Below, in pieces: positions 24,174-64,000 of a stretch of 64,000 nucleotides of DNA. The translations under genes were made by a program, and so were the position numbers. The notes beneath the pieces were generated by a model. It was not told the DNA's origin. It was given only the letters and a program-made list of their open reading frames with translations, and did not search any database. The DNA is taken from the NCBI GenBank assembly GCA_003554585.1, contig PWGV01000163.1, forward strand, positions 6,071-70,070, read 5' to 3'. This stretch comes from Halobacteroidaceae bacterium. GTDB lineage: Bacteria > Bacillota > Halanaerobiia > B1SED10-174. Within the stretch, counting starts at the first letter, position 1. Every line of letters starts with the position of its first letter.

Positions 24174-25484
24174 GTGCTTTACAAGCTCGAGGATAGACCG
24201 CCTCTTGTGGAAACTATACTCCTGGGGCTGCAGCACATGCTGGCAATGTTTGTGGGAATAATAACTCCACCTCTTATCGTTGCAGGTGCGATTGGACTTG
24301 ATACTGAAACAACGTCATTTATCGTATCAATGGCTCTGATTGCATCGGGGATTGCTACCTGGCTGCAGATAAAAACCCTGGGCCCAATTGGGTCGGGGCT
24401 ATTGGGTGTTCACGGGACCAGCTTTACTTTCTTGCCACCGGCCATTTCTGCAGGTTTGGCAGGAGGCTTACCGCTTATTTTTGGGATGGCCCTTATTACT
24501 TCACCCGTGGAAATGGTCCTTTCTAAGTTTGTCGAACAGGCCCGCAGAATTTTTCCTCCGGTCGTTACGGGTCCTGTTGTAATGATGATTGGACTCAGCC
24601 TTATTGGTTCGGGGATGAATGATTTTCTGGGTGGAGTAGGTTCGGCTGATTTTGCCAGCCCCCGCAACATTATCCTGGCCCTTTTTGTTCTCTCGATAAT
24701 CATTTATTTCAACCGTTTTGGGCGAGGACTGGCCCGGATAGGTGCAGTTGCAGTGGGTATCATTGTTGGTTACCTGGTCAGCTGACCCCTGGGGCTGGTT
24801 AACTTTGGACCAGTGACTGAGGCGGGGTGGTTGACCCTTCCCAGGCCGGTTGGGTATGGCCTGAGTTTCAGCTGGACTGCCGTCATCCCCTGGATAGTAG
24901 CCTATTTTATAACCTCAATAGAAACCATAGGTGACCTGACTGCAACTGCAGAAGCCTCTGGGGAACCGGTTACCGGAAAGTTACATAGCAGGCGGCTCCG
25001 GGGAGGTGTCCTTGCCGATGGTGTTGGCTCGGCTATTGCGGCTATCTTTAACTCTATGCCCAACACTACTTTCTCCCAGAACATCGGAGTAATTCACCTG
25101 GCCCGGATCGGCAGCAGGGTTGTGGGACTGGCCTGTGGAACCATCCTCCTGGTCCTTGGTTTTTTACCCAAAATCGGGGCTTTGGTAAGGGTAATGCCGC
25201 GTCCGGTCCTGGGAGGGGCAACTGTTGCCATGTTCGGCCTTGTGACTACTTCCCGGATCAGGATTGTCGCCTGGGGAGCCCTAACCGAGAGAAACATATT
25301 TATTCTCTCAATTGGCCTGGCCCTGGGGATGGGAGTTCAGTACGTTCCAGAAGCAACAGGACAGCTTCCCGCTGTCGTGGCCAGTATTTTTGAGCAGCCC
25401 ATTGCTACAACTGCAATTGTTACCTGCCTGCTAAATCTAATTATTCCCAGAGAAGAAAAGGAGGCTGATGTTGATGCTAATTGA
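24174..25484 (+). pseudogene. NCS2/NAT xanthine-uracil-urate permease interrupted by one in-frame TGA (24783-24785)
   Basis: ORFs 24174-24785 and 24813-25484 share one reading frame, separated by a single TGA plus 9 sense codons. The N-half has LEDRPPL...LGLQHMLAMFVG and the C-half has the NAT signature-like FSQNIGVIHLARIG. Confidence 0.8.
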
Positions 25485-26349: not shown

Positions 26350-26824
26350 AGTAAAAGTGAATTTGAAAGTGAACGGGAAAGAACATTCCCTGGAAGTAGA
26401 AGCTGCGACCAGGTTGCTGGACCTTTTAAGGGATGAACTGGGGTTGATTGGCACCAAGGAAGGTTGTGGCAAGGGGGAATGCGGGACCTGCACGGTAATT
26501 ATGGATGGGAAAACTGTTAATTCCTGCTTGGTTCTTGCTCCCCAGGCAGAGGGCCGGGAAATCACAACCATTGAAGGCCTGGGTTCTCCTGAAGCTCTGC
26601 ATCCCCTGCAGGAAGCTTTTATTACAAAAGGAGCAGTACAATGTGGTTACTGCACTCCCGGAATTCTTTTGTCTGCCTATAATCTGCTGAACAAAAATCC
26701 TCACCCCCCCAGGGAGGAAATTAAGGAAGGAATTTCGGGAAATCTTTGCCGCTGCACGGGCTATGTTAAAATAGTAGAAGCAATTGAATTCTTCAGCGAA
26801 GGGAGGGATGAGCATGGTAAATAA
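26336..26824 (+). CDS. Xanthine-dehydrogenase-family [2Fe-2S] small subunit
   Basis: GCGKGECGTCTV, QCGYCTPG and NLCRCTGY cysteine clusters. Confidence 0.9.
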   Translation: MKMAKVKVNLKVNGKEHSLEVEAATRLLDLLRDELGLIGTKEGCGKGECGTCTVIMDGKTVNSCLVLAPQAEGREITTIEGLGSPEALHPLQEAFITKGAVQCGYCTPGILLSAYNLLNKNPHPPREEIKEGISGNLCRCTGYVKIVEAIEFFSEGRDEHGK

Positions 26825-29123
26825 ATTTGTTGGGCAGAGGGTTGACCGGGTTGATGCCCGGGATAAGGTATCGGGGAAAGCACTTTATTCTGCTGATTTT
26901 TACCTGGAAGACATGCTTTATTTGAAGGTCCTGCGTGCTCCTCATCCCCATGCCCGAATTAAATCCGTGGATGTAAGCAAAGCCCGCAAGATACCCGGAG
27001 TTGTAATGGCCATAACCGCCAGGGACATTCCCTGGGTAAAAAACTTCGGCATGATTTTCAAGGACCAGGAAGTTCTTGCCCGGGAGAAGACTCGGTACAT
27101 GGGAGATGCCCTGGCGATAGTTGCAGCGGAGACACCTACCATAGCCCGGCAGGCCCTGGATAGTATCGAAGTTGATTACGAGCCCCTGGAAGTTCTTTCG
27201 GATCCACTCCAGGCCATGGACAAGAAAGTTCCTTATATTCACGAGCCCAGGGAAGAAAACTGTGAACCTGGCCTGAACCCAGGGAACTTGCTCTGCTCCC
27301 ATCGGCTGGAAAGAGGGGATATCAAAAAAGGTTTTGCCGAGGCAGACAAAATAATTGAAAACGAAATTCGAACTCCCCATGTTGAACACGTTGCCCTGCA
27401 GCCCGAGGCAGGGGTCGCAAAATATGACAAGGAAATCGGGGTTTGCACCATGTGGGTGGCTACACAGTGGCTGCATGATATTCAGGCCGATGTAGCCCAG
27501 GCTCTTAACCTGAAGGCCGAACAGGTTCAGATCATTCAGCCCGCGATCGGAGGAGCTTTTGGAAAACGGGAAGATGTTTCCGTCCACATTATTATAGGTT
27601 TGATGGCCATTTTAACCGGGCGACCCGTCAAGATGGAAATGACCCGGGAAGAACTGATGATTACCCAGAATAAGCGGCACCCCATTATTTTCCGCTACAA
27701 GACCGGGGTGAAAAATGACGGTACCATTACCGCCTGGGAAGCAGAAGTTATTGGAGATACGGGTGCCTATGCTTCAACCGGGTCAGCTGTAGTTCACCAG
27801 GCTCTCTATATGTGCACGGGACCCTACAACGTCCCTCACCTGAGGGGAGTCTCCTATACGGTTTATACCAACAATACTTATGCTGGCGCAATGCGGGGTT
27901 TTGGGGCAACCCAGGCGGCCTTCGCCTATGAAACCCAGATGGATTGTATCGCTGCGGAGCTGGGTATGGATCCCCTGGAGTTCCGGCGGGAAAATGCCTA
28001 TGAACTGGGCTCGATAACTCCCAATGGACAGATCCTAACCACAAGTGTGGGGATCAAAGAAACCCTGGATAAAGCTGCAGAAATATTCGGATATGAGCCC
28101 GGACAGCGCAGTAAAGAGGTTAATGGCAAAATCCGCGGAGTGGGAGTTGCCTCTTCCATGTTTGGTTGTGGTTACGGGGAAGGTTTTCCGGATCATTCTA
28201 TAGTTGACCTGGAAGTAACCGATGAGGGTAAGATCCTGGTCCATTCTGCTGCCGCTGATGTAGGGCAGGGGATTTTAACCGTGATCTGCCAGATTGTGGC
28301 TGAAGTTCTGGATATTCCGATGGACCTTGTGGAAATGGCTCCAGGAGATACTCACTCAACCCGAAACGCGGGGTCCACCTCGGCAACCCGGCAGACAATA
28401 TTTTCTGGAAATGCGGCGAAACTGGCTGCAGAAGAGCTTTTAGGGAAGATTTACCATAGGGCTTCTCTGGAACTTTCCAAACATCACCCCCAGTTTTTGG
28501 TAAAGGACGGAGAAGTTGTGTTGCAGGGCACAGAAACCAGACTATCCCTGGCGGAACTTTCCAGAATTTCAAGAGAAAAAGGAGATCCTCTCCAGGCTGA
28601 GGGATGCTATTTCCCCAGGACCGATGTTCCTGAGGAAGCAACAGGGCAGGGCCGACTGGTTTATGTTGCCTACGCGTTCAACACCCACATTACTGAAGTC
28701 GAGATTGATAAATATACCGGAGAAACAAAAGTTTTACGGGTTGTTGCAGTCCCCGATGTGGGGAGGGTAATCAACCGGGTTGGTGTTGAAGGGCAGAGTG
28801 AGGGAGGAACAGTTATGGGCCTGGGTATGGCTCTGATGGAAAAACAGGTTATCGAAAATGGTATTACCAGGAACGCTGACCTTTCAACCTACCTGATTCC
28901 CACTTCCCTGGATATGCCGGAGATAATTACTGATATTGTGGAAAGCGGTGATGCAGCTGGACCCTATGGGGCAAAGGGAATTGGCGAACCCGCACTATTG
29001 CCAGCGGCGCCAGCGATAATTAACGCGATTTACAACGCTACGGGAGTAAGGTTTTACCAAACACCGGTTACTCCCGATGAAATTCTGCAGGCACTGCAGT
29101 CCCGAGAAAGCAAAAACCCCTAA
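26814..29123 (+). CDS. Xanthine-dehydrogenase-family molybdopterin-binding large subunit
   Basis: GGAFGKRED, GAMRGFG and GAKGIGEP motifs. ATG 26814 is 6 nt after a GGGAGGG RBS. Confidence 0.9.
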   Translation: MVNKFVGQRVDRVDARDKVSGKALYSADFYLEDMLYLKVLRAPHPHARIKSVDVSKARKIPGVVMAITARDIPWVKNFGMIFKDQEVLAREKTRYMGDALAIVAAETPTIARQALDSIEVDYEPLEVLSDPLQAMDKKVPYIHEPREENCEPGLNPGNLLCSHRLERGDIKKGFAEADKIIENEIRTPHVEHVALQPEAGVAKYDKEIGVCTMWVATQWLHDIQADVAQALNLKAEQVQIIQPAIGGAFGKREDVSVHIIIGLMAILTGRPVKMEMTREELMITQNKRHPIIFRYKTGVKNDGTITAWEAEVIGDTGAYASTGSAVVHQALYMCTGPYNVPHLRGVSYTVYTNNTYAGAMRGFGATQAAFAYETQMDCIAAELGMDPLEFRRENAYELGSITPNGQILTTSVGIKETLDKAAEIFGYEPGQRSKEVNGKIRGVGVASSMFGCGYGEGFPDHSIVDLEVTDEGKILVHSAAADVGQGILTVICQIVAEVLDIPMDLVEMAPGDTHSTRNAGSTSATRQTIFSGNAAKLAAEELLGKIYHRASLELSKHHPQFLVKDGEVVLQGTETRLSLAELSRISREKGDPLQAEGCYFPRTDVPEEATGQGRLVYVAYAFNTHITEVEIDKYTGETKVLRVVAVPDVGRVINRVGVEGQSEGGTVMGLGMALMEKQVIENGITRNADLSTYLIPTSLDMPEIITDIVESGDAAGPYGAKGIGEPALLPAAPAIINAIYNATGVRFYQTPVTPDEILQALQSRESKNP

Positions 29124-29128
29124 AGAAG

Positions 29129-31885
29129 GTGATTGGATTGCCCGGCGACAATATTTTCAAGGTTAATGGGTTTGAGCAAACAATCCCGCAGGGTGAAACC
29201 AGGACCCTTTTGCAATACCTGCGGGATGAATTGAAACTCCTGGGTACAAAAGATGGTTGCTCAGAGGGACACTGTGGGGCCTGCACTGTTATTGTAGATG
29301 GTAAAGCCCGACTTGCCTGCCGTCTGCAGATGACCGACCTGGGAGGGGCAAGCGTGGAAACAATTGAAAACCTTTCCCGGAATTCAGAACTCCACCCCCT
29401 GCAGATTGCGTTTGCTAAAACCGGTGCTATTCAATGTGGATTCTGCACCCCCGGGATGATCATGTCGGCAAAAGCCCTTCTGGACAGGCAACCTGATCCC
29501 ACAGAAGATGAAATTAAAAAGGCCCTGCAGGGCAATCTCTGCCGGTGTACTGGCTATATTAAGATTGTGGAAGCCGTCAGGTTCGGAGCCCGTTATCTCC
29601 GGGAAAAGAGAGAGGAAGAGGAAGAGGAAAAAGATATCATTTCCCGGGTCGGGGAAAATGTTATCAAAAACGACGCTGTGGCCAAAGCAAGAGGAGAACC
29701 CTTTTACGTCGATGATCTATACAGAGAAAACATGCTTTACGGGAAGCTACATCTCAGCTCGGAACCCCACGCCAGAGTGGTTCAGGTAAATTTCGAAGAA
29801 GCCCTGCAGGTTCGGGGAGTTGTTAAAGTCCTTACTGCAGAAGATATCCCAGGCAGGAATTCTTTTGGGTTAAAAATTACCCATCAGCCCGTCCTGGCCG
29901 GGGATAAAGTCCGCTATACGGGTGATCCGGTGGCGTTGGTTTTAGCCGAAAGCAAGGCCGCGGCAGAAGAAGGCGCTGCCCGGATAAAGGTTATGTATGA
30001 AAAACTCCCCGCTTATTACAGGCCCGAAGATTCCTTGCAGGAAAATGCGGAAAAAATCCACGCAGAAGGCAACATTCTTACCGAATTAAATATAAAAAAG
30101 GGTTCACCCCAAGAGGCCATGGAAAAAGCAGATATAGTCGTGGAAGGTCAATACAAAACACCTTTCGGTGAACACGCTTACCTGGAACCCGATGGAGGAC
30201 TCGCCGAATACAGCGATGGAAAAATAACTGTCTGGTGTCCGAACCAGGGAGCGCATCAGTTCCGGGAAATGATTGCTGCAAGCCTGAACCTTCCCCTGGA
30301 AAAAGTCCGGGTTATTACCACAAAAACTGGAGGTGCTTTCGGAGGCCGGGAAGAGCCTACTGTCCAGATTCACTGTGCCCTGGGAGCCATGCTTACCGGG
30401 AGACCCGTTAAAATTATTCTTTCCCGGGAAGAAACAATCAGGATGTCCACAAAGCGTCATGCAGCCAGGATGTTTTACCGGACTGGAGTTAGCAAAGAGG
30501 GAAAAATAATAGCAGGAGAGGTTAAAATATACAGTGATACCGGGGCCTATGCTTCCCTGGGAGAACCTGTTGCCCTGCGGCACACCGCTTTTGCCCTGGG
30601 TCCTTATGTGGTTCCCAATGTCCGGGTCCAGACCTTTTCCGTTTACACCAATAATACTCCGGGAGGGGCTTTTCGGGGTTTCGGCAGTCCCCAGGTGAAT
30701 TTCGGAGCTGAACTGCAGATGGACCGCCTGGCCCGGGAGTTAAAGATGGATCCCCTGGAATTCCGGCTGAAAAATGCCTTGCAGAAAGGCGAAGCGACAA
30801 TAACTGGCCATATTCTTGGGGGAGGAGTTGGCTTTAAAGAATGCCTGCTTAAATTAAAAGAAGCATTGGAAAAGGAAAAGCTTCCCGAACCCCAGATTGG
30901 AGGGAAGATTGGATTTGGAATTGCCGGGGGCTATAAAAATGTGGGGATGGGAGCAGGTTTACCCGAAAAAACGGGTTCCGGCCTGCAGCTCAATTCCGAT
31001 GGAACCTTTACCCTCTTTGTGGGCTGCGTGGATTCGGGCCAGGGTTCAGATACCGCCATGGCTCAGATTGTTTCGGGAGTTTTGAATTGTTTTTTCCGAG
31101 ATATCAAAGTTGTTTCCGCGGATTCCGCATTGACCCCGGATGTTGGAGTAACGACGGCCTCCCGGATGATATTTTTGAGCGGTAATTCTGTGGCGGGCTG
31201 CGCCCGTGAATTTAAAGAAAAATTGTCCGGGGTTGTCGCTGATAAAACCGGGATAAAAGCCGAGGACCTGGAGCTTAACGGGAGGGGTTTTATTAAAAAA
31301 TCAACTGGAGGGGAAGTTATGAGCCTGCAAGAACTGGGCAAACTGATCCCCAATAACCGCCACGATTATGATTACCAGCCCCCCGAAACTCACCCCCTTC
31401 CCCTTGAAGATATTCCTGCAGTACCCAGCGCCAGGGAAAAACACCACCTGCATTTTGCCTACTGTTTCGGAGCCCACGGGGTTGTTTTAGAGGTTAATGA
31501 AGAAAAGGGGAAAATAAAAGTTCACAAGGTTTTTGCCGCCCATGATGTGGGCCGACAGGTAAATCCCCAGGGGGTTGAAAGCCAAATCCAGGGTGGTGTT
31601 GCCATGGGACTGGGCTACGTTCTGGGAGAAAACTATTACCTGAAAGATGGTTTTCCGGTCCAGAATAACCTTGCCCGTTTAAAACTCCTGCGGGCCAGGG
31701 ATATGCCCCAGGTAATTTCTCTGGTTGTAGAAGACAACCACCCTGACGGTCCCTTTGGGGCCAAGGGGATGGCAGAACTGCCCGGAGCCCCGGTTGCTCC
31801 CGCAGTGGTTAACGCCATATTTAATATCACGGGAAGGTTGATTACCCGCCTACCCGTTTCTGGCAGTGATTTAAAAGGAAAGTAA
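29129..31885 (+). CDS. xdhD: XdhD-like fused [2Fe-2S] plus molybdopterin-binding hydroxylase (selenium-dependent Mo hydroxylase class)
   Basis: N-terminal GCSEGHCGACTV, QCGFCTPG and NLCRCTGY, then GGAFGGREEP, GAFRGFG and GAKGMAELP. At 918 aa it has the same architecture as E. coli XdhD. Confidence 0.8.
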   Translation: MIGLPGDNIFKVNGFEQTIPQGETRTLLQYLRDELKLLGTKDGCSEGHCGACTVIVDGKARLACRLQMTDLGGASVETIENLSRNSELHPLQIAFAKTGAIQCGFCTPGMIMSAKALLDRQPDPTEDEIKKALQGNLCRCTGYIKIVEAVRFGARYLREKREEEEEEKDIISRVGENVIKNDAVAKARGEPFYVDDLYRENMLYGKLHLSSEPHARVVQVNFEEALQVRGVVKVLTAEDIPGRNSFGLKITHQPVLAGDKVRYTGDPVALVLAESKAAAEEGAARIKVMYEKLPAYYRPEDSLQENAEKIHAEGNILTELNIKKGSPQEAMEKADIVVEGQYKTPFGEHAYLEPDGGLAEYSDGKITVWCPNQGAHQFREMIAASLNLPLEKVRVITTKTGGAFGGREEPTVQIHCALGAMLTGRPVKIILSREETIRMSTKRHAARMFYRTGVSKEGKIIAGEVKIYSDTGAYASLGEPVALRHTAFALGPYVVPNVRVQTFSVYTNNTPGGAFRGFGSPQVNFGAELQMDRLARELKMDPLEFRLKNALQKGEATITGHILGGGVGFKECLLKLKEALEKEKLPEPQIGGKIGFGIAGGYKNVGMGAGLPEKTGSGLQLNSDGTFTLFVGCVDSGQGSDTAMAQIVSGVLNCFFRDIKVVSADSALTPDVGVTTASRMIFLSGNSVAGCAREFKEKLSGVVADKTGIKAEDLELNGRGFIKKSTGGEVMSLQELGKLIPNNRHDYDYQPPETHPLPLEDIPAVPSAREKHHLHFAYCFGAHGVVLEVNEEKGKIKVHKVFAAHDVGRQVNPQGVESQIQGGVAMGLGYVLGENYYLKDGFPVQNNLARLKLLRARDMPQVISLVVEDNHPDGPFGAKGMAELPGAPVAPAVVNAIFNITGRLITRLPVSGSDLKGK

Positions 31886-37565: not shown

Positions 37566-38174
37566 ATGATCGCAGCCGTTCTCCTCGCTGCCGGTGAGGG
37601 ACGCCGGATGAAGAGGCTAAAACAAACCTTACCCTGGGAAAATGAACTTACCCTGGTCCAGGCCAGCCTGGAAAACATCCTGACCTGTAGGGAGATAGAA
37701 GGCCCCATCCGGGTGGTTATTGGAGCCAAAGCAGAGCAGGTTCGGGAAAATTTTAAAAAATATTCTGACCCCCGGCTGGAGATTCGGAGAAACCGGGAAT
37801 ACAAAAAAGGAATGATATCCTCGATAAAAACAGGACTTGCATCGCTACCCGGAGAGGTAAATGGGTTTTTCATAGCTCTTTCCGACCAGCCCCTGATTTC
37901 TTCCGGGACCTATACTGAATTGATAAGAATTTTCCGGGAGGGAGAACATAAAATTATTGTGCCTGTTTACCAGGAAAAAAGAGGGCATCCAGTTTTATTG
38001 TCCTCTGGTTTTCTGGCGGAAATTCTGGAAATGCCGGATAGTCCGGGGGGATTACGTCCCCTGTTAAAAAGGCACCAGGACCAGGTTTTATGGAAGAATG
38101 TAAAAGATCCAGGAGTTACTATCGACCTGGACTATCCCGAGGATTATTTCCATTACAGGAGGGAAGGGAAATGA
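37566..38174 (+). CDS. mocA: MobA-like NTP transferase, MocA-type molybdenum cofactor cytidylyltransferase
   Basis: AAVLLAAGEGRRM N-terminus, ALSDQP and a length of about 200 aa. Precedes yqeB/yqeC. Confidence 0.7.
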   Translation: MIAAVLLAAGEGRRMKRLKQTLPWENELTLVQASLENILTCREIEGPIRVVIGAKAEQVRENFKKYSDPRLEIRRNREYKKGMISSIKTGLASLPGEVNGFFIALSDQPLISSGTYTELIRIFREGEHKIIVPVYQEKRGHPVLLSSGFLAEILEMPDSPGGLRPLLKRHQDQVLWKNVKDPGVTIDLDYPEDYFHYRREGK

Positions 38175-38980
38175 GAAAGGGACCCGTAATCATTAAAGGC
38201 GCTGGAGAGATGGCCTCGGGAACTGCTCATAAGCTCTTTCGAGCTGGTCTGAAGGTGGTAATGACTGAAATTCCCCAGCCCCAGGCTGTTCGCCGGGGAG
38301 TTTCTTTTGCCCAGGCCGTTTTTACCGGGGAACATACAGTTGAAGACGTAACTGCCTGCTGCGTGCAAAAAATCTCGGAAATTATTGAGGTTTTAAATCA
38401 GGGATTTATCCCGGTTCTTCCCCGGCCTCTTACTGCTGAAGAACTGGAGGAATTAAATCCCAGGGCCCTGGTTGATGCTACCCTGGCTAAAGAACAAACT
38501 GATACCTACTGGGGAGAAGCTCCCGTTGTAATTGGGCTGGGGCCTGGATTTCGGGCTCCGGAAGATGTCCATGCGGTAATTGAAACTCAGAGAGGGCATC
38601 ACCTTGGCCGGATATATTTCCAGGGTATTGCTGCACCCAATACCGGAGAACCGGGTGAAATACTGGGTTATACCTGGGAACGGGTTTTAAGATCTCCCGC
38701 AAAAGGCGAATTTGTTGCTTTCCGGGAAATTGGTGATGAGGTTGAAGCAGGAGATGAAATAGGGGTAATTGATAAGCAGGATATGGTCTGTGCAGGGATT
38801 CCAGGAGTCATCCGGGGTTTAATCTATCCGGGTTTAACTGTTGGAAAAGGAACCAAGCTCGGAGATATTGATCCCCGGGGGATCCGGGAGTATTGTTTCA
38901 CAATTTCTGATAAAGCCAGGAACATTGCGGGAGGTGTTCTGGAGGCCTTGCTTTTCCTGGAGGGGAAAAAATATGTTTAA
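38171..38980 (+). CDS. yqeB: YqeB-family selenium-dependent molybdenum hydroxylase accessory protein
   Basis: VIIKGAGEMASGTAHKLFRAGLKVVMTEIPQPQAVRRGVSFAQAVF matches my recollection of the YqeB-family N-terminus. ATGA overlap with mocA. Confidence 0.7.
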   Translation: MRKGPVIIKGAGEMASGTAHKLFRAGLKVVMTEIPQPQAVRRGVSFAQAVFTGEHTVEDVTACCVQKISEIIEVLNQGFIPVLPRPLTAEELEELNPRALVDATLAKEQTDTYWGEAPVVIGLGPGFRAPEDVHAVIETQRGHHLGRIYFQGIAAPNTGEPGEILGYTWERVLRSPAKGEFVAFREIGDEVEAGDEIGVIDKQDMVCAGIPGVIRGLIYPGLTVGKGTKLGDIDPRGIREYCFTISDKARNIAGGVLEALLFLEGKKYV

Positions 38981-39719
38981 ACCCGGTATTGATCCAGTTA
39001 TTTCTCTGATTGGGGCGGGAGGGAAAACCTCAATTTTATATCATTTCGGGGATTGTTCTTCCCGCCTGGGAGAAAAGGTAGTGCTTACCACTACAACCAG
39101 GGTTTTTCCTGTTGAACGGCAGGATGTACCCCTGCTCCTGGAAGAAGACAGGGAGAAAAGAGCCGAAAGGGCAGGAGAACTTTTAAAAACTCATTCCCTG
39201 ATTCAGGTTGGGGCAGGAAGGGTAGGGAAAAAGGTAATTGGAGTTGAACGGGAAACAGTTCAGGACTTCCTGCAGAACGGGGCCGACCGGGTTATTGTTG
39301 AAGCCGATGGAGCCCGGGGTTTGCCTTTGAAATTTCCCGCGGAGCATGAACCCGTTTTACCTTTTCCACCGGGAAGGGTTTTCCTGGTCGTTGGAGCCTG
39401 GGCTCTGGGCCAGCCTTTTTCAGAGAAAATTTTTCACCGGCCGGAGCTTGCCCGGCGTTACCTTAGCTGGAAAGAAGGGCAGCTAATCGAAGGGGAACAC
39501 ATCGCTGATTTACTGCTCCACCCTAAATCATATTTACCGCGCCTGGAAGGGAAAAAAATATCAGTGATTTTAAATGGAGTTCGGGGTATGTGGCAGGAAA
39601 ATGAAGCCCAGAGGATAGGGGCAATTTTGTTCCGCAAAAGCAGGGTAGGAAATATTTACCTCACCAACCTTAAAGACCAACCATTCCTATGGAAATTGCT
39701 AAGAAGAAGGCAGGAATAG
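38973..39719 (+). CDS. yqeC: YqeC-family selenium-dependent hydroxylase accessory protein
   Basis: ISLIGAGGKTSILYHF P-loop-like N-terminus and VIVEADGARGLPLKFPAEHEPV. Overlaps the yqeB stop. Confidence 0.7.
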   Translation: MFKPGIDPVISLIGAGGKTSILYHFGDCSSRLGEKVVLTTTTRVFPVERQDVPLLLEEDREKRAERAGELLKTHSLIQVGAGRVGKKVIGVERETVQDFLQNGADRVIVEADGARGLPLKFPAEHEPVLPFPPGRVFLVVGAWALGQPFSEKIFHRPELARRYLSWKEGQLIEGEHIADLLLHPKSYLPRLEGKKISVILNGVRGMWQENEAQRIGAILFRKSRVGNIYLTNLKDQPFLWKLLRRRQE

Positions 39720-43701: not shown

Positions 43702-44398
43702 AAGCAAGGTCTATGCGAATCAGGGCGCTCCGGCGGGGGTTGGGGAGATACAGCCCTTCCCCGTCGGGGCGGGCGATTTGCCTGGCATGATTGCGGGCCA
43801 TCTGGGGGGAAATACGAAGCTGCTGTGATAAAAATGAAGTGGCTTCTTCCATGTCCTTAACTGGCTGTCCGAAATCAAAAGAGATCAATTCCAGGTGGTA
43901 ATTTAAATCCAGATTTTTCAGGGCTGCTTCTGTTTCCTCGTAAGGCAGGGGAGAAGTAGCCCTTTCCAAACCACTGCCAAAATCTTTTGGGCCCGCCGGG
44001 GCGATTAAGAAAACTTTTCGGCGGGTGTGCTCACAGATTTTTTTTAAACTCTCTTTCCTGCCCATGACCTGAGAACCGGAAAAAGCGGAAATAGTTACAT
44101 CGGCAATAATCCCTTCCGGAAATTCGCCGGGCCAGGAACCGGAGAGGATTTCGATTTTTTCGCAATTCCCGGTTACCTTTTCCAGGTATTTTCGGGGCAG
44201 CGGAGCAGGTTCCAGGTTATAGACCTTTTTTACGTGGCCAAATAGTTCCCGGGAAAAAAGCCCGGGACCTGAACCAATGTCTAAAAGGACATCGTCGGGT
44301 TGCAGGAAGGGTTTAATTTTCTCGATAAAAACACTGGGATAATCCGACTGCTCTCCTGCCTGCAAATACCAGCGCAGGCGATCAATATTCCATCTCAT
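43700..44398 (-). CDS. Class I SAM-dependent methyltransferase
   Basis: Motif I VLLDIGSGPGLF. 4-nt overlap with the upstream NTPase gene. Confidence 0.75.
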   Translation of the reverse strand: MRWNIDRLRWYLQAGEQSDYPSVFIEKIKPFLQPDDVLLDIGSGPGLFSRELFGHVKKVYNLEPAPLPRKYLEKVTGNCEKIEILSGSWPGEFPEGIIADVTISAFSGSQVMGRKESLKKICEHTRRKVFLIAPAGPKDFGSGLERATSPLPYEETEAALKNLDLNYHLELISFDFGQPVKDMEEATSFLSQQLRISPQMARNHARQIARPDGEGLYLPNPRRSALIRIDLA

Positions 44399-44940
44399 CG
44401 GGCCAAAAGCCCCCTTTCACGAAGAAAATTTCCGAGCAGGGATGCGGTTCTCCGCTCCTCGATCCTGTGGATTTCCACTCCAGGGGTAGCCCTGACCCGG
44501 TCCAAAAATGGACTGGACTTTTCCTTGATTACTCCAAGAACCGGCTGGGTTGAACGGAGCCTGGCCAGGACCGCCTGCTGAAACAGAAGGGCTTCTTCCT
44601 CGAAAATTCCCAGCTCGTCCATTATTAACAGGGAACAATTAACCGCCTGCTGGAGGGCCCGGGTGCCTTTCTGATTAAAAGTGCTTAAGACAGGGATCCA
44701 GCGGGAGCAGTTTTTTTTCTGATAGATTACCAGGTCCCGGATGGATCCCTGGAAGGATTTAGTTAGGCAGTATGGTTCCTCCCTGAGGTCAGCCAGCCTA
44801 AAAGCTACTGTTTTCCCGGAAAGAAGCATGCGCTGGACGACAAAACCTCCAACAGGACCCTTAATTTCTGGAATGAAGTCAACTATTAAAGAAGATTTTC
44901 CCCGACGAGGGGGGCCGGTGAGGAAAAAGTTATTGGGCAT
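44395..44940 (-). CDS. THEP1/NTPase_1-like P-loop nucleoside triphosphatase
   Basis: FFLTGPPRRGKSSLI (Walker A), GGFVVQR and LLIMDELGIFE (Walker B). ATG 44940 lies behind a GGAGGA RBS. The longer listed ORF extension is unsupported. Confidence 0.75.
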   Translation of the reverse strand: MPNNFFLTGPPRRGKSSLIVDFIPEIKGPVGGFVVQRMLLSGKTVAFRLADLREEPYCLTKSFQGSIRDLVIYQKKNCSRWIPVLSTFNQKGTRALQQAVNCSLLIMDELGIFEEEALLFQQAVLARLRSTQPVLGVIKEKSSPFLDRVRATPGVEIHRIEERRTASLLGNFLRERGLLAR

Positions 44941-45024
44941 TTGTTCCTCCTGTAAGGTACTAAATTTAAAGCCATTATTGCATACGGGGGATGGAAAGTC
45001 AATATTTATAAGGAGGGGAAGGTA

Positions 45025-46026
45025 ATGAGCGGGATTTACCATAATCTTAAAAAAATGATTGAAGCCGGGAAAGCCGGATTATTTTTTATCGATCTTGACC
45101 AGGAGCCAGGACGGCTGGGCCTTTATGATTCTGGCGGAGACTTTCTCGCTGGAGCTGACTTTGTCCCCAGGGATATAAGGAAAGATGTTATAGATTCCAG
45201 CAAACCTGGCATTCGAAAAAGCTCGGGAGGCAGGATTTATGGAGAGCTAGTGGCCCCGGTCCCCGTCCTTGTAATCCTGGGAGGGGGACATATAGCTAAA
45301 CCCCTTGCAGAAATGGGAAAACAAATTGGGATGAAAACCTGGGTAGTCGACGACCGGAAAGAATTTGCCTCCCCGGAGCGCTTCCCCGGTGTAAATAAAT
45401 TAATTGCCGGAGAATACAGGGAGTTTTTCCGGAAATTCCAGCCGGGCCTGGAACACTTTCTGGTAATAGTGACCCGCGGTCACAGGCACGACCTGAGTTG
45501 TGCCCTTGAGGCTTTGCAAACCAGGGCCTCCTATATCGGGATGATAGGTAGTAAGCGTAAGGTTAAAGAAGTATTTCAAAAATTAAAAGAAGAAGGTTTT
45601 ACAGAAGAAGATATTAGAAGGATTTATGCTCCTATTGGTCTTGATATTGGTGCAGAAAGCCCCGGGGAAATAGCTGTTAGTATTGTCGCTGAGATTATTA
45701 AAGTAAAAAAGGGTAAAGGGGAGCCAGGTAACTGGCAGGAAATCCTTCCTGCCCTGCAGAAGGGCAGCATGCTGGCGACAATAGTCTCTGCCAGCGGATC
45801 TACTCCTCGGGGAGCGGGCGCCCGCCTTCTTTTGCAGCCTGATGGTTCTACAGTAGGAACTGTAGGCGGAGGGCTGGGTGAAGGAAAGGTAATTCAAAAA
45901 GCCCGAGAAATCCAGGGCTCGGGAAGCAAAGTTTTGCTGGATTTTGAACTGGATCAGGATATCGCGGAAGAAGAAGGTATGATTTGTGGAGGTTCTTTTT
46001 CCGTTTTTATTCAACCTGTTGAATAG
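45025..46026 (+). CDS. xdhC: XdhC/CoxI-family molybdenum hydroxylase maturation factor with atypical domain order
   Basis: Rossmann segment VLVILGGGHIAKPLAEMGKQIGMKTWVVDDR...VIVTRGHRHD...IGMIGSKRK. A canonical XdhC_CoxI-type segment sits at the C-terminus (ATIVSASGSTPRGAGARLLL...GTVGGG...GMICGGSFSVFIQP). Confidence 0.8.
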   Translation: MSGIYHNLKKMIEAGKAGLFFIDLDQEPGRLGLYDSGGDFLAGADFVPRDIRKDVIDSSKPGIRKSSGGRIYGELVAPVPVLVILGGGHIAKPLAEMGKQIGMKTWVVDDRKEFASPERFPGVNKLIAGEYREFFRKFQPGLEHFLVIVTRGHRHDLSCALEALQTRASYIGMIGSKRKVKEVFQKLKEEGFTEEDIRRIYAPIGLDIGAESPGEIAVSIVAEIIKVKKGKGEPGNWQEILPALQKGSMLATIVSASGSTPRGAGARLLLQPDGSTVGTVGGGLGEGKVIQKAREIQGSGSKVLLDFELDQDIAEEEGMICGGSFSVFIQPVE

Positions 46027-60233: not shown

Positions 60234-60263
60234 GAAAATAAAAAAACCTCCGGAAAGGGAGGT
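60234..60263 (-). terminator. Intrinsic terminator acting as the riboswitch expression platform
   Basis: The minus strand reads ACCTCC-ctttcc-GGAGGT followed by TTTTTTTATTTT. Lies about 75 nt upstream of the first operon gene. Confidence 0.7.
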
Positions 60264-60283
60264 CAGGTACAGACTAAGGTACC

Positions 60284-60377
60284 ACTCCTTTCCACACTGG
60301 GAGGCACAGCCGTTTCCAGCAGTGCCCTATCGGCTTGAGGCCAGCCCAACAAGGGGTAAGGCGTTCAAGCTCGGAGT
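60284..60377 (-). promoter_or_regulatory. Moco (or Tuco) riboswitch-like aptamer (cis-regulatory RNA)
   Basis: Minus strand: ACUCCGAGC...GCC-uua-CCC-cuuguu-GGG-cu-GGCCUC...GGCAC-u-GCUG-GAAA-CGGC-u-GUGCCUCCC-agugu-GGAAAGGAGU. P1 pairs ACUCC with GGAGU. The CCGAGC, GCCUC, GCCUCCC and GGAAAGGAG blocks match my recollection of the Moco RNA motif. Not verified with a covariance model. Confidence 0.6.
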
Positions 60378-60487
60378 CAATTTTCTGTTCCTTTTCTTAA
60401 TTCGTGAATACCCTGGAAACCCCTTTATTTTTTGCAGGAATTTTTATAATAAGAGGAGAAATTGTTCAAAAATGTACAAGACGAGGG

Positions 60488-62236
60488 GTGGTTTTCCTGG
60501 GAAGAAAAATTATTTTTTATTTTTTCGTTATCTTTCTTTTTCTTTATTGCCCCACTGTGGATGCTTTTGATATCCCAGAAGTAAAAATTGAAGATGGAGT
60601 TTTACGGGCTGGCTCGGGGTGGAGAATTGATCTTGAAGGACTGCGGATAGGATTTTTAAGTGGGAGCCCGGAGGAGATTGGAATCCAGCATGGCCTTTTA
60701 ATGACCGAAAACCCGGAAGAACTCAGGCAAAAAATGCTGGATAAGCTACCTTTTGCTCATCCAGAGACCCTTGGAGAGAGGTTCGCGGGGTTTTTTCTCA
60801 ATACCTATGCCCGTTTTCAGTTTTACCCTGCTTTTTTAAGGCATACACCAGAAGAATATATTCGGGAAATGCGGGGCTTTGTCCTGGGGGCCTCCCGGGG
60901 GGAAGAAGACGACATTTACGATGTTATGATGGGTAATGCTGCTCAAGATCTTGAAATCGCTGCCTGTTCAGCATTCGCTGCCTGGGGGAATGCAACCGAA
61001 GACGGGGAAATTTACGTGGGCAGGAACCTTGACCACGGGGGAATGCTGGATCTGGCCAGCTACCAGTACCTGGCAATTTATGACCCCGAAAGGGGATACC
61101 GTTTTGCCGTCCATAATTACCCGGCTTTTGTGGGGACAATGAGCGGAATGAATGAAAAAGGGCTGGTTATTAGCTCAAATTATTCAATGGCCCGCAGGGA
61201 GGAAACGACAATTAATGGACTCCCCTACATGTTTATGTTACGCAATGTTCTCCAGAACGCAGCTACTATCGATGAAGCCCTGGAAATAATCAAAAATACC
61301 CCTCGAACAATTGGGCTGACCCTGCTCCTGGCTGACGGGAAAACGCCAGAAGCTGTTGTAGTGGAAATAACTGCTGATAGGATGCAGGTAAGAACTGGAG
61401 AGGATTATATCTTCGCTGCCAACCGCTATTTACATCCCGAGATGAAAGACTATCAGGCCGGGGGCTGGCTGGCTTCAGCCCTGCGGGAGAAGCGCTTTCA
61501 GGAGTTGATTACCGATGAATTCTGGGGTCAGATTGATGTCTCCGTCACCCGTGATATCATGCGGGATCGATTGCCTCCTGAAGGTTTTAAACAGGAAAAC
61601 TTCGGGCAGGGTATCAACCATGAAGTGAATATGGCTTCCATGGCCATGGTTCCCTCCCGGGGGGAATTCTGGGTGGGAGCAGTAGATGATTCTGAAATTC
61701 CTTTTGCGGCTGATGCCCACTTTGTTGGGATTGATGTCCGGAAAATCTGGGAAACCGGGGAACCACCCCGGGAACCGATTGGTATTCTGGAGGCAACACC
61801 CCGGGAGGGGTACGAGGGTTACTGGTTTAAGGCTCGGGAAGCCAACCTTCTTTTAGGCCAGGGAAAAAGAGAAAAAGCCCTTGAACTCCTGGAAGAAGTT
61901 TTATCTGTTTACCCCCGGGCAGAAATGCCCCTGCTTCTGGCCGGGAGAGCCCTGATTAGAGAAGGGGAAATAGATAAAGGGATTGAATACCTGGAGCGTT
62001 TTGCAACCCTTGAGTATAACAGCGAACCGTTCCATCAAATGGAAGGTTATTTCTGGCTGGCTGTGGTTTACGATCAGGTTGGAGAGAGGGAAAAGGCAGT
62101 TGAGTATTACCGAAAAAGCTTGCAGGTCCAGATTGAAGATATGCCCCCGGCCGAAGGCGGTTACCGTTATTTCGCCGAAAAGGGAATTGAAACTCCGCTA
62201 AAGTTAACTCCCGAGGGGAGGGTATATATTCCGTGA
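60488..62236 (+). CDS. Exported C45-family (acyl-CoA:6-APA acyltransferase-like / Ntn) hydrolase with C-terminal TPR repeats
   Basis: Signal-like N-terminus VVFLGRKIIFYFFVIFLFLYCPTVDA from GTG 60488. ACSAFAAWGNATEDGEIYVGRNLD is the Ntn Cys context. TPR-like C-terminus (ALELLEEVLSVYP..., AVEYYRKSLQ). The start is uncertain. Confidence 0.7.
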   Translation: MVFLGRKIIFYFFVIFLFLYCPTVDAFDIPEVKIEDGVLRAGSGWRIDLEGLRIGFLSGSPEEIGIQHGLLMTENPEELRQKMLDKLPFAHPETLGERFAGFFLNTYARFQFYPAFLRHTPEEYIREMRGFVLGASRGEEDDIYDVMMGNAAQDLEIAACSAFAAWGNATEDGEIYVGRNLDHGGMLDLASYQYLAIYDPERGYRFAVHNYPAFVGTMSGMNEKGLVISSNYSMARREETTINGLPYMFMLRNVLQNAATIDEALEIIKNTPRTIGLTLLLADGKTPEAVVVEITADRMQVRTGEDYIFAANRYLHPEMKDYQAGGWLASALREKRFQELITDEFWGQIDVSVTRDIMRDRLPPEGFKQENFGQGINHEVNMASMAMVPSRGEFWVGAVDDSEIPFAADAHFVGIDVRKIWETGEPPREPIGILEATPREGYEGYWFKAREANLLLGQGKREKALELLEEVLSVYPRAEMPLLLAGRALIREGEIDKGIEYLERFATLEYNSEPFHQMEGYFWLAVVYDQVGEREKAVEYYRKSLQVQIEDMPPAEGGYRYFAEKGIETPLKLTPEGRVYIP

Positions 62237-63369
62237 AAAGTTTAACCCTGGCAATTTTAATTTTTAGCCTTTTATCTGTTTCCTCGATCCAGGTAGAAGC
62301 TTCAGACAATTGTAAAATAGAAGAAATTATTGTGCTGGGCCTGACCAGGACGGAAGAAAGCGTTGTGCTTTCTCAGCTTCCTTTTTCGGAAGGAGATGTC
62401 TGGAAAGAAGAGTACCGGAGATGGACCCTGCGCAGATTACAGCTTCTGGATTTCTTTGCCTATGATCCGCTGCGGGTTATTGTTGAGCCCATAGAGGATG
62501 AAAAATGCCGGGTCATTGTTCGAGCTACAGACCCGACAGTATTATACAAAGAGCCCATGAAATTTTTGCTAACAAATGCAGTGAATCTACTTTTCCGGCA
62601 ATTTGAACTTTCCCTTTTTAATCCCGGGGGAATTGGAAGCAGTTTTAAGTTTTATGGCAGCTGGGGTAACTACAGGAACCTGGGGATGACAGTTTCCAGT
62701 CCCATTGGGGCGGGAATTGGTTCTGCCGGTGGACAAATTTATTCAAACTCAACAGGATTCTATAAGGAAAGTGGACTGGTATTTAAGGGCGACTACAGCA
62801 ACTGGGTTGATCCTTCAATTCGTTTAACGGGTGGAATTGATTACCGGACTGGGGAGCTCAACGAACAAAAACAGATAATTATGTTACCCCGGGGAGAATT
62901 ATATTATGATAATGAGTTTAAAGGAGAGATAAAGACTTCGGCAGGCTTTTTTTTCACCGGGGAAAAACCTTTTATCCGGCTTCAGGGGCAGGCTATGGGA
63001 GAACTGGGGTCATTTGTTGGATTAATCCGGGGCGGTTTCATTGCAGGGGCAAACCCACCCTTAAATTATCACTACCGCCTGGGAGGGTTTGGACTAATTC
63101 CCCTGCGGGGTCAACCAGTTGAACTGGCCCGGAATTTTTTATTGGGAACTGTAGAATACCATTTTCAAACCCCTCAGTTTATCCCCATCCTTTTTGCTGA
63201 CGGGGGCTGGTATAGCCCCGGGGGAGAAGGAGGAAATATTAATATCGGGGCAGGACTGGCAATGGAAATTCCCCTCGGGGTAATCAGGGCTGATTTTGCC
63301 TGGCATCCCTTCCGGGGGACTACTGGCTTTAATATTGGTTTTGGCCACAGCTACCGCCCTCCATTTTAA
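62233..63369 (+). CDS. Omp85/BamA-superfamily outer-membrane beta-barrel with a single POTRA domain
   Basis: Signal peptide ending VEASD, a POTRA-like segment IEEIIVLGLTRTEESVVLSQLPFSEGDVW, alternating beta-strand pattern, and the terminal aromatic signature GFGHSYRPPF. GTGA overlap with the upstream gene. Confidence 0.75.
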   Translation: MKSLTLAILIFSLLSVSSIQVEASDNCKIEEIIVLGLTRTEESVVLSQLPFSEGDVWKEEYRRWTLRRLQLLDFFAYDPLRVIVEPIEDEKCRVIVRATDPTVLYKEPMKFLLTNAVNLLFRQFELSLFNPGGIGSSFKFYGSWGNYRNLGMTVSSPIGAGIGSAGGQIYSNSTGFYKESGLVFKGDYSNWVDPSIRLTGGIDYRTGELNEQKQIIMLPRGELYYDNEFKGEIKTSAGFFFTGEKPFIRLQGQAMGELGSFVGLIRGGFIAGANPPLNYHYRLGGFGLIPLRGQPVELARNFLLGTVEYHFQTPQFIPILFADGGWYSPGGEGGNINIGAGLAMEIPLGVIRADFAWHPFRGTTGFNIGFGHSYRPPF

Positions 63370-63489: not shown

Positions 63490-63774
63490 ATGAAGTATCG
63501 GGAGAGACCTGATCAGTTTAAAAAGAAATTAATGGACAGGATGGAAAGAATTAATGGGCAGACCCGTGGAATTTTGAAAATGATTGAAGAAGACCGCTAT
63601 TGTATTGATATTCTTATTCAAATAGGCGCTGTAAAAGGTGCGCTTAACCAGGTTGCCCTGCAGCTTTTCGAGGACCACAGCCAGCACTGTCTGGCGGACT
63701 CCATGGTAAGCGGGGGTAAAAAACAGGAAGAAGCAGTAGAAGAGCTGCTTACAGCACTGAAAAGAATGCTTTAA
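63490..63774 (+). CDS. csoR: CsoR-family copper-sensing transcriptional repressor
   Basis: RINGQTRGILKMIEEDRYCIDILIQIGAVKGAL...HSQHC, which carries the C-H-C ligand pattern. Confidence 0.9.
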   Translation: MKYRERPDQFKKKLMDRMERINGQTRGILKMIEEDRYCIDILIQIGAVKGALNQVALQLFEDHSQHCLADSMVSGGKKQEEAVEELLTALKRML

Positions 63775-63787
63775 GGAGGTGGAAGAA

Positions 63788-64000
63788 ATGAGGAAAATTA
63801 TCCATATAGAAGGTATGAGCTGCGGTGGTTGTGTTGCCCGGGTAAAAAAAGCCCTGGAGGGCATTCCGGGAATAGAATCGGTTAATGTAGAACTGGAAGC
63901 CAAACGGGCAGAGGTTACCGGTCCGGAAGAGGTTCTGCAGGAAGAACAACTCCGGGAAGCAATAAGCAAACTGGGTTATACGGTTAAGGGAGTTGATTGA
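63788..64000 (+). CDS. copZ: HMA-domain copper chaperone CopZ
   Basis: IEGMSCGGCVARVKKAL motif. The stop TGA ends exactly at the window edge. Confidence 0.85.
   Translation: MRKIIHIEGMSCGGCVARVKKALEGIPGIESVNVELEAKRAEVTGPEEVLQEEQLREAISKLGYTVKGVD

Follow-up and report, generated by a model that had tools for sequence, protein, structure and literature searches.

A P3-less Moco/Tuco riboswitch at the head of an eight-gene ECF transporter operon: a predicted OFF switch and a candidate system for pyranopterin acquisition in anaerobes

The Moco/Tuco riboswitch family (RF01055; Moco and Tuco being the molybdenum and tungsten cofactors) includes a class without helix P3, which was proposed to sense the tungsten cofactor from a gene-context correlation with exceptions (PMC2408646). 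The gene classes recognized in 2008 were molybdate/tungstate transporters, biosynthesis of molybdopterin (MPT) or Moco, and cofactor-using enzymes; two P3-less RNAs of Syntrophomonas wolfei, upstream of 'putative sulphite oxidase' genes, were unexplained exceptions (PMC2408646). Two operons of Eubacterium limosum, fetABC1 and focA, have leaders in which a P3-less aptamer is followed by a terminator, and both are upregulated under tungsten limitation (PMC11725836). Here we analyse a 64-kb stretch of the genome of a Halobacteroidaceae bacterium (64,000 nucleotides of contig PWGV01000163.1, assembly GCA_003554585.1; hereafter the window, to which all coordinates refer unless a related locus is named). 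Its minus-strand element at 60388-60240 is very probably the leader of an eight-gene operon, an OFF switch that senses a metal-pterin cofactor; the operon itself may serve acquisition of cofactor from outside the cell. An operon of this type is absent from the 2008 gene classes (PMC2408646).

Three described protein systems bear comparison with the operon. The group I energy-coupling factor (ECF) transporters for vitamins (thiamine, cobalamin, queuosine-related) have the S-component encoded beside its own EcfA, EcfA' and EcfT under an OFF cofactor riboswitch, as here. ECF importers normally lack extracytoplasmic binding proteins, whereas the system described here adds several surface binders and an ecto-phosphodiesterase, the latter fused to the S-component in the window clade. 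EetB/FmnA of Listeria is likewise an ECF module tied to extracytoplasmic cofactor-dependent proteins, with frequent FMN_bind neighbours (PMC9973259); its S-component is of PF07456 rather than PF09819 as here, and the regulatory logic here points to acquisition. PruR is a small secreted protein of the sulfite oxidase (SUOX) fold that lacks the Mo-ligating cysteine and holds a pterin between Tyr104 and Trp160, with Asn102 also in contact (numbering of Agrobacterium tumefaciens PruR; PMC11194511). PruR itself comes from proteobacteria and acts in signalling together with a DcpA-type c-di-GMP enzyme, whereas the PruR-like proteins studied here occur in Bacillota and other anaerobes, are membrane- or lipid-anchored, and stand two to four to a riboswitch-headed operon beside genes for an ECF transporter, a phosphodiesterase of the nucleotide pyrophosphatase/phosphodiesterase (NPP) type and MobB.

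The leader RNA is a genuine member of the Moco/Tuco family that any Rfam scan would annotate. Rfam cmscan matched RF01055 at 60388-60269 on the minus strand with 62.1 bits (gathering score 36; E 1.7e-12), the sole above-threshold Rfam match in the whole window, and the alignment spans the full model (positions 1-135) with 15 P3 positions (59-73) deleted. Our own covariance model, R1, scores the same P3-less aptamer at 93.6 bits. It shares with the published P3-lacking class the layout of P1, P2, P4 and P5, the junctions and the GAAA loop on P4; a terminator follows, as described for some members, and in both cases cofactor-related genes lie downstream (PMC2408646). The minimum-energy fold of the leader recovers these four helices and the terminator (z = -3.0 against dinucleotide shuffles).

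An initial annotation, made from the sequence alone, had proposed a Moco-type riboswitch here, and most of its structural detail stands. The P1 helix it described is formed by ACUCC (60377-60373) and GGAGU (60288-60284), both on the minus strand, in the minimum-energy fold, and the P1 pairs covary over the 57 aptamers described below. It had correctly placed hairpins within P1 but counted two, where three helices are present: a long P2 hairpin with an internal loop (60370-60333, from the Rfam alignment and the minimum-energy fold), P4 and P5. P4 (60327-60302) is indeed the hairpin it had read as GGCAC-U-GCUG-GAAA-CGGC-U-GUGCC, with a U/U mismatch, one U.G pair and the GAAA tetraloop at 60316-60313, while P5 (60301-60292) is a mini-helix CC...GG of 2 bp in the Rfam consensus structure, paired in 99% of cells. 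The length of about 94 nt that it gave is that of the span 60377-60284 including both P1 strands; the part enclosed is 84 nt. The conserved J5/1 core and the P1 3' strand together make up GGAAAGGAG (60293-60285). The junction sequences CCGAG (after P1), CCUCCC and GGAAAGG are all present in the window copy and are invariant or near-invariant among relatives, and the linker from P2 to P4 is 5 nt.

Relatives of the operon are numerous. A word-indexed search with the 623-aa fusion protein encoded in the window gave only 8 clusters, and the rarity that this implied was overturned by a pattern scan of one genome per species for S-component/phosphodiesterase relatives, which found 338. They occur in Bacillota (Maledivibacter, Wukongibacter, [Clostridium] ultunense, Anaerosalibacter, Paramaledivibacter, Halanaerobiales, Syntrophomonadaceae and others) and beyond, in Actinomycetota, Dehalococcoidia, Sumerlaeota and Thermotogaceae; the closest, at 83% identity, is from a metagenome-assembled genome of a Bacillota bacterium of soda-lake sediment. 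Of 90 loci scanned with a strict motif, 38 contained aptamer cores, on the gene strand throughout, and ten motif-found cores, with the structure copied from the Rfam consensus, were used to build model R1. This model returned 57 matches, all upstream and on the gene strand: the window aptamer, 55 credible relatives and one weak match (L083:1582-1686, 28 bits; related loci carry L numbers), which Rfam did not confirm and which was dropped as an aptamer. The 56 credible aptamers are spread over 53 loci and several phyla. Rfam itself confirms RF01055, at 58-82 bits and upstream of the same operon, in 12 related loci (L001, L012, L017, L018, L021, L024, L038, L040, L046, L056, L073 and L083).

These leaders covary as the consensus structure predicts. 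Of the two findings that the initial annotation had named as refuting it here, a score under the gathering threshold and a lack of compensatory covariation in homologous leaders, neither was obtained. Standard pairs fill 90.8% of pair cells across the 57 aptamers; the figure drops to 71% in shuffles and to about 46% if each partner is slid by one column. Changes on both sides are seen in 20 of 26 pairs, with 321 compensatory cells against 110 in shuffles, and none of 500 shuffles reached the observed covariation values. All seven pairs of lower P2 change on both sides, as do 8 of the 11 of P4, where 96% of cells are paired. Upper P2 was excluded from the pair counts; a MAFFT alignment of 39 leaders had mis-registered both upper P2 and the 3' GGAAAGG block, and the covariance-model alignment was used in its place. 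The P2-to-P4 linker measures 4-7 nt in 57/57 aptamers, so that none has P3, and the P3-less subclass to which the initial annotation had tentatively assigned the RNA is confirmed by this as well as by the deleted model positions.

Tandem P3-less aptamers, most with their own terminator, occur in L028 (3446-3550 and 3610-3711) and L044 (6962-7066 and 7132-7233), in front of longer operons with a FecCD/Peripla_BP_2 ABC importer and a RIO-like kinase. The arrangement recalls the triple one reported in Syntrophomonas wolfei.

Downstream of the aptamer the window offers a clean, textbook-style platform for transcriptional OFF control. An independent consensus terminator scan found an intrinsic terminator at 60264-60240 (minus strand), comprising a stem-loop at 60264-60245 with a 7-pair stem, 4 G-C pairs and a 6-nt loop, then TTTTTATTTT; its arms are ACCUCC (60263-60258) and GGAGGU (60251-60246), and the T-run at 60246-60240 has seven T's including a paired one, as the initial annotation had written it. 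That reading had further placed the 3' strand of P1 within a segment nearly complementary to the terminator, which is the case: GGAAAGGAG can act as the 5' strand of an antiterminator and pairs with CUCCCUUUCC (60261-60252), the terminator 5' arm and loop, through nine pairs with one bulged C. The antiterminator duplex GGAAAGGAG:CUCCCUUUCC is computed at -10.3 kcal/mol, against -9.8 for the terminator hairpin. In the full-length leader, forcing GGAAAGGAG onto CUCC(C)UUUCC gives -59.7 against a minimum of -62.7, a cost of 3 kcal/mol. For a transcript cut at 60252, ahead of the terminator 3' arm, the lowest-energy fold is the antiterminator, at -49.2 kcal/mol, while enforcing P1 gives -45.6; once that arm is included, the minimum shifts to aptamer plus terminator (-55.6 kcal/mol).

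A hairpin and T-run lie behind most related aptamers. Over a non-redundant set of 49 related leaders, the aptamer 3' core and the terminator 5' half have a longest Watson-Crick match of 6.0 nt on average, where composition-matched shuffles give 3.9; the match reaches 6 nt or more in 30 of the 49, and UUUCC occurs in 21. The terminator/antiterminator logic is therefore a conserved trait of the family and no accident of the window sequence. Together with the energies at the decision point, this supports in silico the OFF switch of the initial annotation, in a kinetically controlled arrangement, all of it computed, in which termination would respond to ligand. The published E. limosum data agree in direction, since tungsten limitation there raises expression, which is OFF-switch behaviour (PMC11725836). 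The fetABC1 and focA genes differ from those of the window operon; 'fetABC'-like FecCD/Peripla_BP_2 importers appear in the operon variants L028, L039 and L042.

The mechanism that we propose is as follows. During transcription the core in GGAAAGGAG would choose between closing P1 and the ligand-binding junction, and pairing with CUCCCUUUCC. With no ligand the antiterminator would win, the terminator would be blocked and the operon transcribed. With a metal-pterin cofactor bound, the aptamer would keep its 3' core, the terminator and U-tract would form, and transcription would halt about 80 nt before the first gene. The operon would thus be expressed when the cell is short of cofactor. The first gene has a ribosome-binding site, AAGGAGG, at 60175-60169 (minus strand), 9 nt before its ATG at 60159. 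A consensus scan of the window found no sigma-70-like promoter on the minus strand; a weak candidate seen by eye consists of TTGAAC (60469-60464) and TATAAA (60448-60443) with a 15-nt spacer on that strand.

The genes downstream bear out the 'transporter operon' of the initial annotation, in that they encode an ECF-type transporter with accessory proteins. Eight genes run from 60159 to 52693 on the minus strand. Gene 1 (60159-59107; Oxidored_molyb, 29.6 bits) encodes a secreted protein of 350 aa that contains two PruR-like (SUOX-fold) domains, of which residues 47-155 match the family profile and 275-312 match it weakly; the signal peptide is of Sec type without a twin-arginine motif. Gene 2 (59103-57232; 623 aa) is a fusion in which a seventh hydrophobic helix links a PF09819 S-component (ABC_cobalt, 47.2 bits) to a phosphodiesterase/nucleotide pyrophosphatase domain of NPP type (PF01663; Phosphodiest, 43.7 bits), which is extracytoplasmic. 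Gene 3 (57228-56704) encodes a membrane-anchored PruR-like protein of 174 aa, and genes 4 to 6 encode EcfA (56707-56030; ABC_tran), EcfA' (56033-55356; ABC_tran) and EcfT (55362-54622; CbiQ, 94.6 bits), whose best NCBIfam matches are ECF ATPase and T-component families, below the equivalog cutoffs. With the S-component encoded beside EcfA, EcfA' and EcfT, this is a dedicated (group I) ECF transporter. Gene 7 (54622-53861) encodes MobB with a Cys-rich C-terminal extension (TIGR00176, 85.6 bits against a cutoff of 76.2; PF03205, 80.2 bits), matched by MobB structures in the Protein Data Bank (PDB) such as 4nkr at E 4e-11. Gene 8 (53883-52693) overlaps the end of mobB and encodes a class V aminotransferase by Pfam and NCBIfam matches; it is found only in the window clade (the window, L001/L011 and L014).

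The PruR-like proteins are called Omo here. Among solved structures, those closest to the profile of the small Omo family are PruR proteins and sulfite dehydrogenase, with 7KOM at E 9e-5. The AlphaFold model of gene 3 (pLDDT 91.3) has PruR structures as its top six PDB fold matches (E 1.5e-8 to 2e-6), with SoxC, YedY and sulfite oxidase ranking behind them; the PruR entries 7KOS, 7KOU, 7KOM and 7RKB (PMC11194511) give template modelling (TM) scores of 0.69-0.75 normalised to target length, although sequence identity is only 17-22%. Profile alignments place the N-D-Y of PruR on D112-G113-Y114 of the family, which are invariant or near-invariant, and the invariant W164, outside the alignment coverage, is similarly distant from the C-terminus as PruR Trp160. 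Like PruR, the Omo proteins are small SUOX-fold domains outside the cytoplasm without a Mo-ligating cysteine: alignments of 29 and 70 sequences hold no conserved Cys upstream of the GV(P)L motif, where the alignment with SorA places the ligand, and the sole frequent Cys of the small-Omo family is in a C-terminal RWCK motif. Omo proteins have an N-terminal membrane anchor or signal peptide, and their signals are of the Sec or lipoprotein type and not Tat, so that they are exported unfolded, which rules out a cofactor loaded beforehand. The operon lacks any GGDEF or EAL gene, the partners being ECF, NPP and MobB; Omo therefore shares the fold of PruR, and probably its ligand class, but not membership of PruR-DcpA signalling.

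The phosphodiesterase domain has its putative catalytic residues. D425, T461, D552, D592-H593 and H604 (motifs DG, PxxT, DxxxH and DHG) are invariant in 8 homologues, and the blocks that hold them, except H604, which lies outside the alignment, align to the Xanthomonas NPP 2GSN at E 5e-9. We take these residues to be the Thr nucleophile and the ligands of the two metal sites, as in the Xanthomonas enzyme. The AlphaFold model of the whole fusion is poor (pLDDT 62); its fold matches are all NPP/ENPP, which, from a low-confidence model, we take only as agreement with the sequence profile, and six helices are predicted for the S-domain. A relationship of the S-component to the thiamine-precursor component YkoE was considered and is not claimed, as no PDB chain was matched by sequence. 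Directly after the seventh helix of gene 2, at residue 203, lies an invariant lipobox-like L-x-G-C, and in genomes with a separate phosphodiesterase (among L012-L090) the Omo proteins of about 350 aa have lipoprotein signal peptides at their N-terminus. Perhaps the fusion is cleaved to yield two proteins; alternatively, the two genes may just have fused recently.

The operon and its riboswitch travel together. The full operon was verified in 66 of the fetched loci, with a near-universal gene order: an Omo of about 350 aa, often a second of about 160 aa, S-component, phosphodiesterase, an Omo of about 174 aa, EcfA, EcfA', EcfT and MobB. S-component and phosphodiesterase are separate genes in most genomes, the window fusion being the minority form, and MobB stands at the operon end in 46/66 related loci. 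The riboswitch is found in 46 of the 66 phosphodiesterase-type loci; of those without it, 13 are cut upstream by a contig end, 6 belong to a high-GC Thermoleophilia-like group that gave no riboswitch at the Rfam threshold, and one is a true exception (L059). Outside the high-GC clade, then, operons with upstream sequence present carry the riboswitch in 46 of 47 cases. Two loci of that clade instead have, adjoining the cluster, a gene for a short helix-turn-helix protein (L003 15309-15788 and L006 7301-7879, both minus strand) whose best match is the ModE molybdate-repressor domain, at 64-66 bits, below the family cutoff. An NTPase_1 gene also adjoins the high-GC clusters; another lies in the window at 44395-45042.

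Larger operon variants carry accessory genes. FMN_bind is the commonest, with 23 of 64 extra open reading frames (ORFs), and often the first gene (examples are L012 7755-8321, L028 8400-8900 and L040 8297-9472, with some 20 further loci). Proteins of this type are flavoproteins located outside the cytoplasm, to which ApbE normally attaches the flavin. Others are further PruR-like proteins (some S-layer-anchored), DUF364/DUF4213, FecCD/Peripla_BP_2 importers, Fer4_5 with FMN_bind, one ApbE and one PBP_like_2. The DUF4213/DUF364 genes ('putative heavy-metal chelation') recur beside or inside the operon, at L009 3955-4806 and in L039, L042 and L060.

The operon is connected with a metal-pterin cofactor by four independent links: its riboswitch, the presence of MobB, the pterin-binding fold of Omo and, in the clade without riboswitch, a ModE-like regulator. 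The OFF logic means that the genes are wanted when cofactor is scarce, which fits acquisition. Our working model, offered tentatively, is a system for uptake or salvage of pyranopterin cofactor or precursor when internal cofactor is low. PruR-like surface proteins would capture an external pyranopterin, whether the cofactor, MPT, a dinucleotide form or cyclic pyranopterin monophosphate (cPMP); the NPP-type ecto-pyrophosphatase would trim nucleotide or phosphate groups off dinucleotide forms; the dedicated ECF module would import the trimmed product; and MobB would receive or handle it inside the cell. GMP is classically released from the dinucleotide cofactor by treatment with nucleotide pyrophosphatase. 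Anaerobic hosts would let an oxygen-labile cofactor persist outside cells.

Several observations tell against this account of switch and operon. First, P2 of the window aptamer has CCUUAC/GCUGG where the canonical 11-nt tetraloop receptor is CCUAAG/UAUGG, a departure from the described class. The variant is common to the closest relatives, L001 and L014; across the 57 copies the P4 loop is GAAA in 53 and GUAA in 4, and the UAUGG receptor strand is present in only 29. Second, the covariation alignment was fitted to our own model, which inflates the pairing counts; the value of about 46% for slid partners nevertheless shows that the signal is position-specific and that model fitting is not the whole effect. 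Third, we know of no in vitro demonstration of ligand binding to any Moco/Tuco RNA. Fourth, L059 (5000-10100, Sumerlaeota) has the full operon and 8.8 kb of upstream sequence in which no aptamer was detected even with search filters off, although three other Sumerlaeota loci carry one, and the S-component-only loci (Syntrophomonas, Pelotomaculum, Desulfosporosinus and Formimonas), which consist of S-component and EcfAA'T, gave no riboswitch at the Rfam threshold. Fifth, a sequence search of the PDB found no solved relative of the S-component. Finally, FMN_bind and Fer4_5 redox proteins, present in many variants, are not needed by a simple uptake model, and suggest a surface redox step beyond it.

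Which metal the ligand contains is a separate matter. That the window RNA senses the tungsten cofactor is an even to moderately favourable proposition. Regulski et al. 2008 (PMC2408646) found tungsten-related genes in 17 of the 19 organisms that had P3-less RNAs, the P3-less RNAs of E. limosum respond to tungsten limitation (PMC11725836), and the lack of P3 in 57/57 aptamers is a uniformity that suggests a specific ligand class. Among the cultured hosts of the operon, Clostridium aceticum and C. formicaceticum are, as we understand it, tungsten users; Alkalibaculum bacchi carries the operon too. It is less probable, though far from negligible, that the RNA senses the molybdenum cofactor, or cofactors of the molybdopterin type generally, the absence of P3 setting no metal specificity: removal of P3 from the E. 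coli RNA brought no switch of specificity, and the link between P3 and tungsten is a correlation with exceptions (PMC2408646). The window itself leans this way. A purine-catabolism cluster on the plus strand (14534-47867), with FAD and 2Fe-2S subunits, several amidohydrolases, adenine deaminase and dihydropyrimidine-dehydrogenase-like genes, encodes two molybdoenzymes of the xanthine dehydrogenase family (26784-29123 and 29129-31885), along with the maturation genes for a MobA-like (MocA-type) protein (37566-38174), YqeC (38841-39719), which we take to mark selenium-dependent molybdenum hydroxylases, and XdhC (45025-46026). No tungstate transporter or AOR-type gene was found within the 64 kb. 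With only molybdoenzymes and no tungsten marker in the window, the tungsten assignment rests on the published P3 correlation.

A different objection is that the operon scavenges the metal itself, as tungstate or molybdate or in complexed or thio forms, and that the riboswitch responds to a lack of metal indirectly, by way of falling cofactor levels. Tungstate transporters are common targets of P3-less riboswitches (PMC2408646). The ModE-like regulator of the high-GC clade would suit this role, as would the variants with FecCD/Peripla_BP_2 importers, DUF364/DUF4213 or PBP_like_2, and tungstate and molybdate, we believe, are phosphate analogues that bind active sites of the alkaline phosphatase superfamily. 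We nonetheless consider it unlikely. The signature components have a pterin-binding fold in which the pterin-stacking Tyr position is conserved, and MobB acts after metal insertion. To our knowledge, all tungstate and molybdate importers are binding-protein-dependent ABC systems, and PF09819 S-components are presumably of the small-organic-substrate type rather than the CbiM/NikM metal type.

It is more improbable still that the operon exports cofactor, or directs it to Sec-exported SUOX-fold oxidoreductases at the surface that are fed by FMN_bind and Fer4_5 carriers. EetB/FmnA, which supplies FAD to extracellular flavoproteins, is a precedent for ECF-type cofactor export (PMC9973259). FMN_bind and Fer4_5 accessory genes and the single ApbE are what such a pathway might use, Omo proteins exported unfolded would have to receive any cofactor outside the cell, and MobB, which handles cofactor in the cytoplasm, is conserved in the operon. 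But with an OFF switch expression is highest during cofactor shortage, opposite to what a system that consumes and exports cofactor would need; the Omo proteins lack the conserved Mo-ligating Cys, and their closest folds are the non-enzymatic PruR binders; the EetB S-component is of another family; and the window operon has no FMN_bind gene. That the RNA is a chance resemblance or a decayed relic without regulatory role, as its receptor variant and the negative promoter scan might suggest, is very improbable, given an E value of 1.7e-12 over the full-length model, an 83%-identical orthologue that retains the terminator and the aptamer with compensatory P4 changes, and dozens of genomes with the aptamer kept upstream of the same operon.

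Some neighbouring genes of the window deserve mention. Divergent from the riboswitch is a gene for a C45-family acyltransferase/hydrolase with TPR repeats (60404-62236, plus strand), for which the GTG listed as start, at 60404, probably lies some 28 codons upstream of the true one, judged by orthologue length; it is followed by one for a 378-aa secreted protein without family match (62233-63369, plus strand), and both are syntenic in the 83% orthologue. At 63490-64000 (plus strand), genes for a CsoR-like metal-sensing repressor and a heavy-metal-associated (CopZ-like) protein start a copper-export locus that continues, with a P-type ATPase, in the orthologous contig L001. Within the purine-catabolism region a single xanthine/uracil permease is split over two adjacent ORFs (24174-24785 and 24813-25484, plus strand; Pfam positions 2-198 and 211-388), by a frameshift, pseudogene formation or an assembly error.

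The riboswitch alone adds little; the main value lies in its regulon, although the expression platforms of Moco/Tuco RNAs have rarely been dissected and this one has about 56 relatives with the antiterminator logic in common. We regard it as possible, and put it forward tentatively, that the riboswitch-marked operon is a previously undescribed, widespread anaerobe system for handling extracellular pyranopterins. We know of no bacterial route for Moco uptake; literature searches on Moco, tungsten or pterin combined with ECF transporters yielded no description of the operon, and the 2013 RegPrecise survey has no Moco-uptake category. The passage of pterins across bacterial membranes is stated to be unknown in a 2026 review (PMC13259868). 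The 'sulphite oxidase' exceptions of S. wolfei may be operons of the same kind. Genes now labelled 'molybdopterin-dependent oxidoreductase' and 'cobalt ECF transporter' in databases can be re-read as pterin binders, a nucleotide pyrophosphatase, an ECF module and MobB. The operon is a concrete, testable candidate for pterin transport that occurs in acetogens and alkaliphiles available in culture, and through it one may learn what P3-less RNAs sense. If the uptake model is true, this would be the first bacterial transporter for the molybdenum or tungsten cofactor, or for any pterin, and would imply cross-feeding of a very labile cofactor in anoxic communities.

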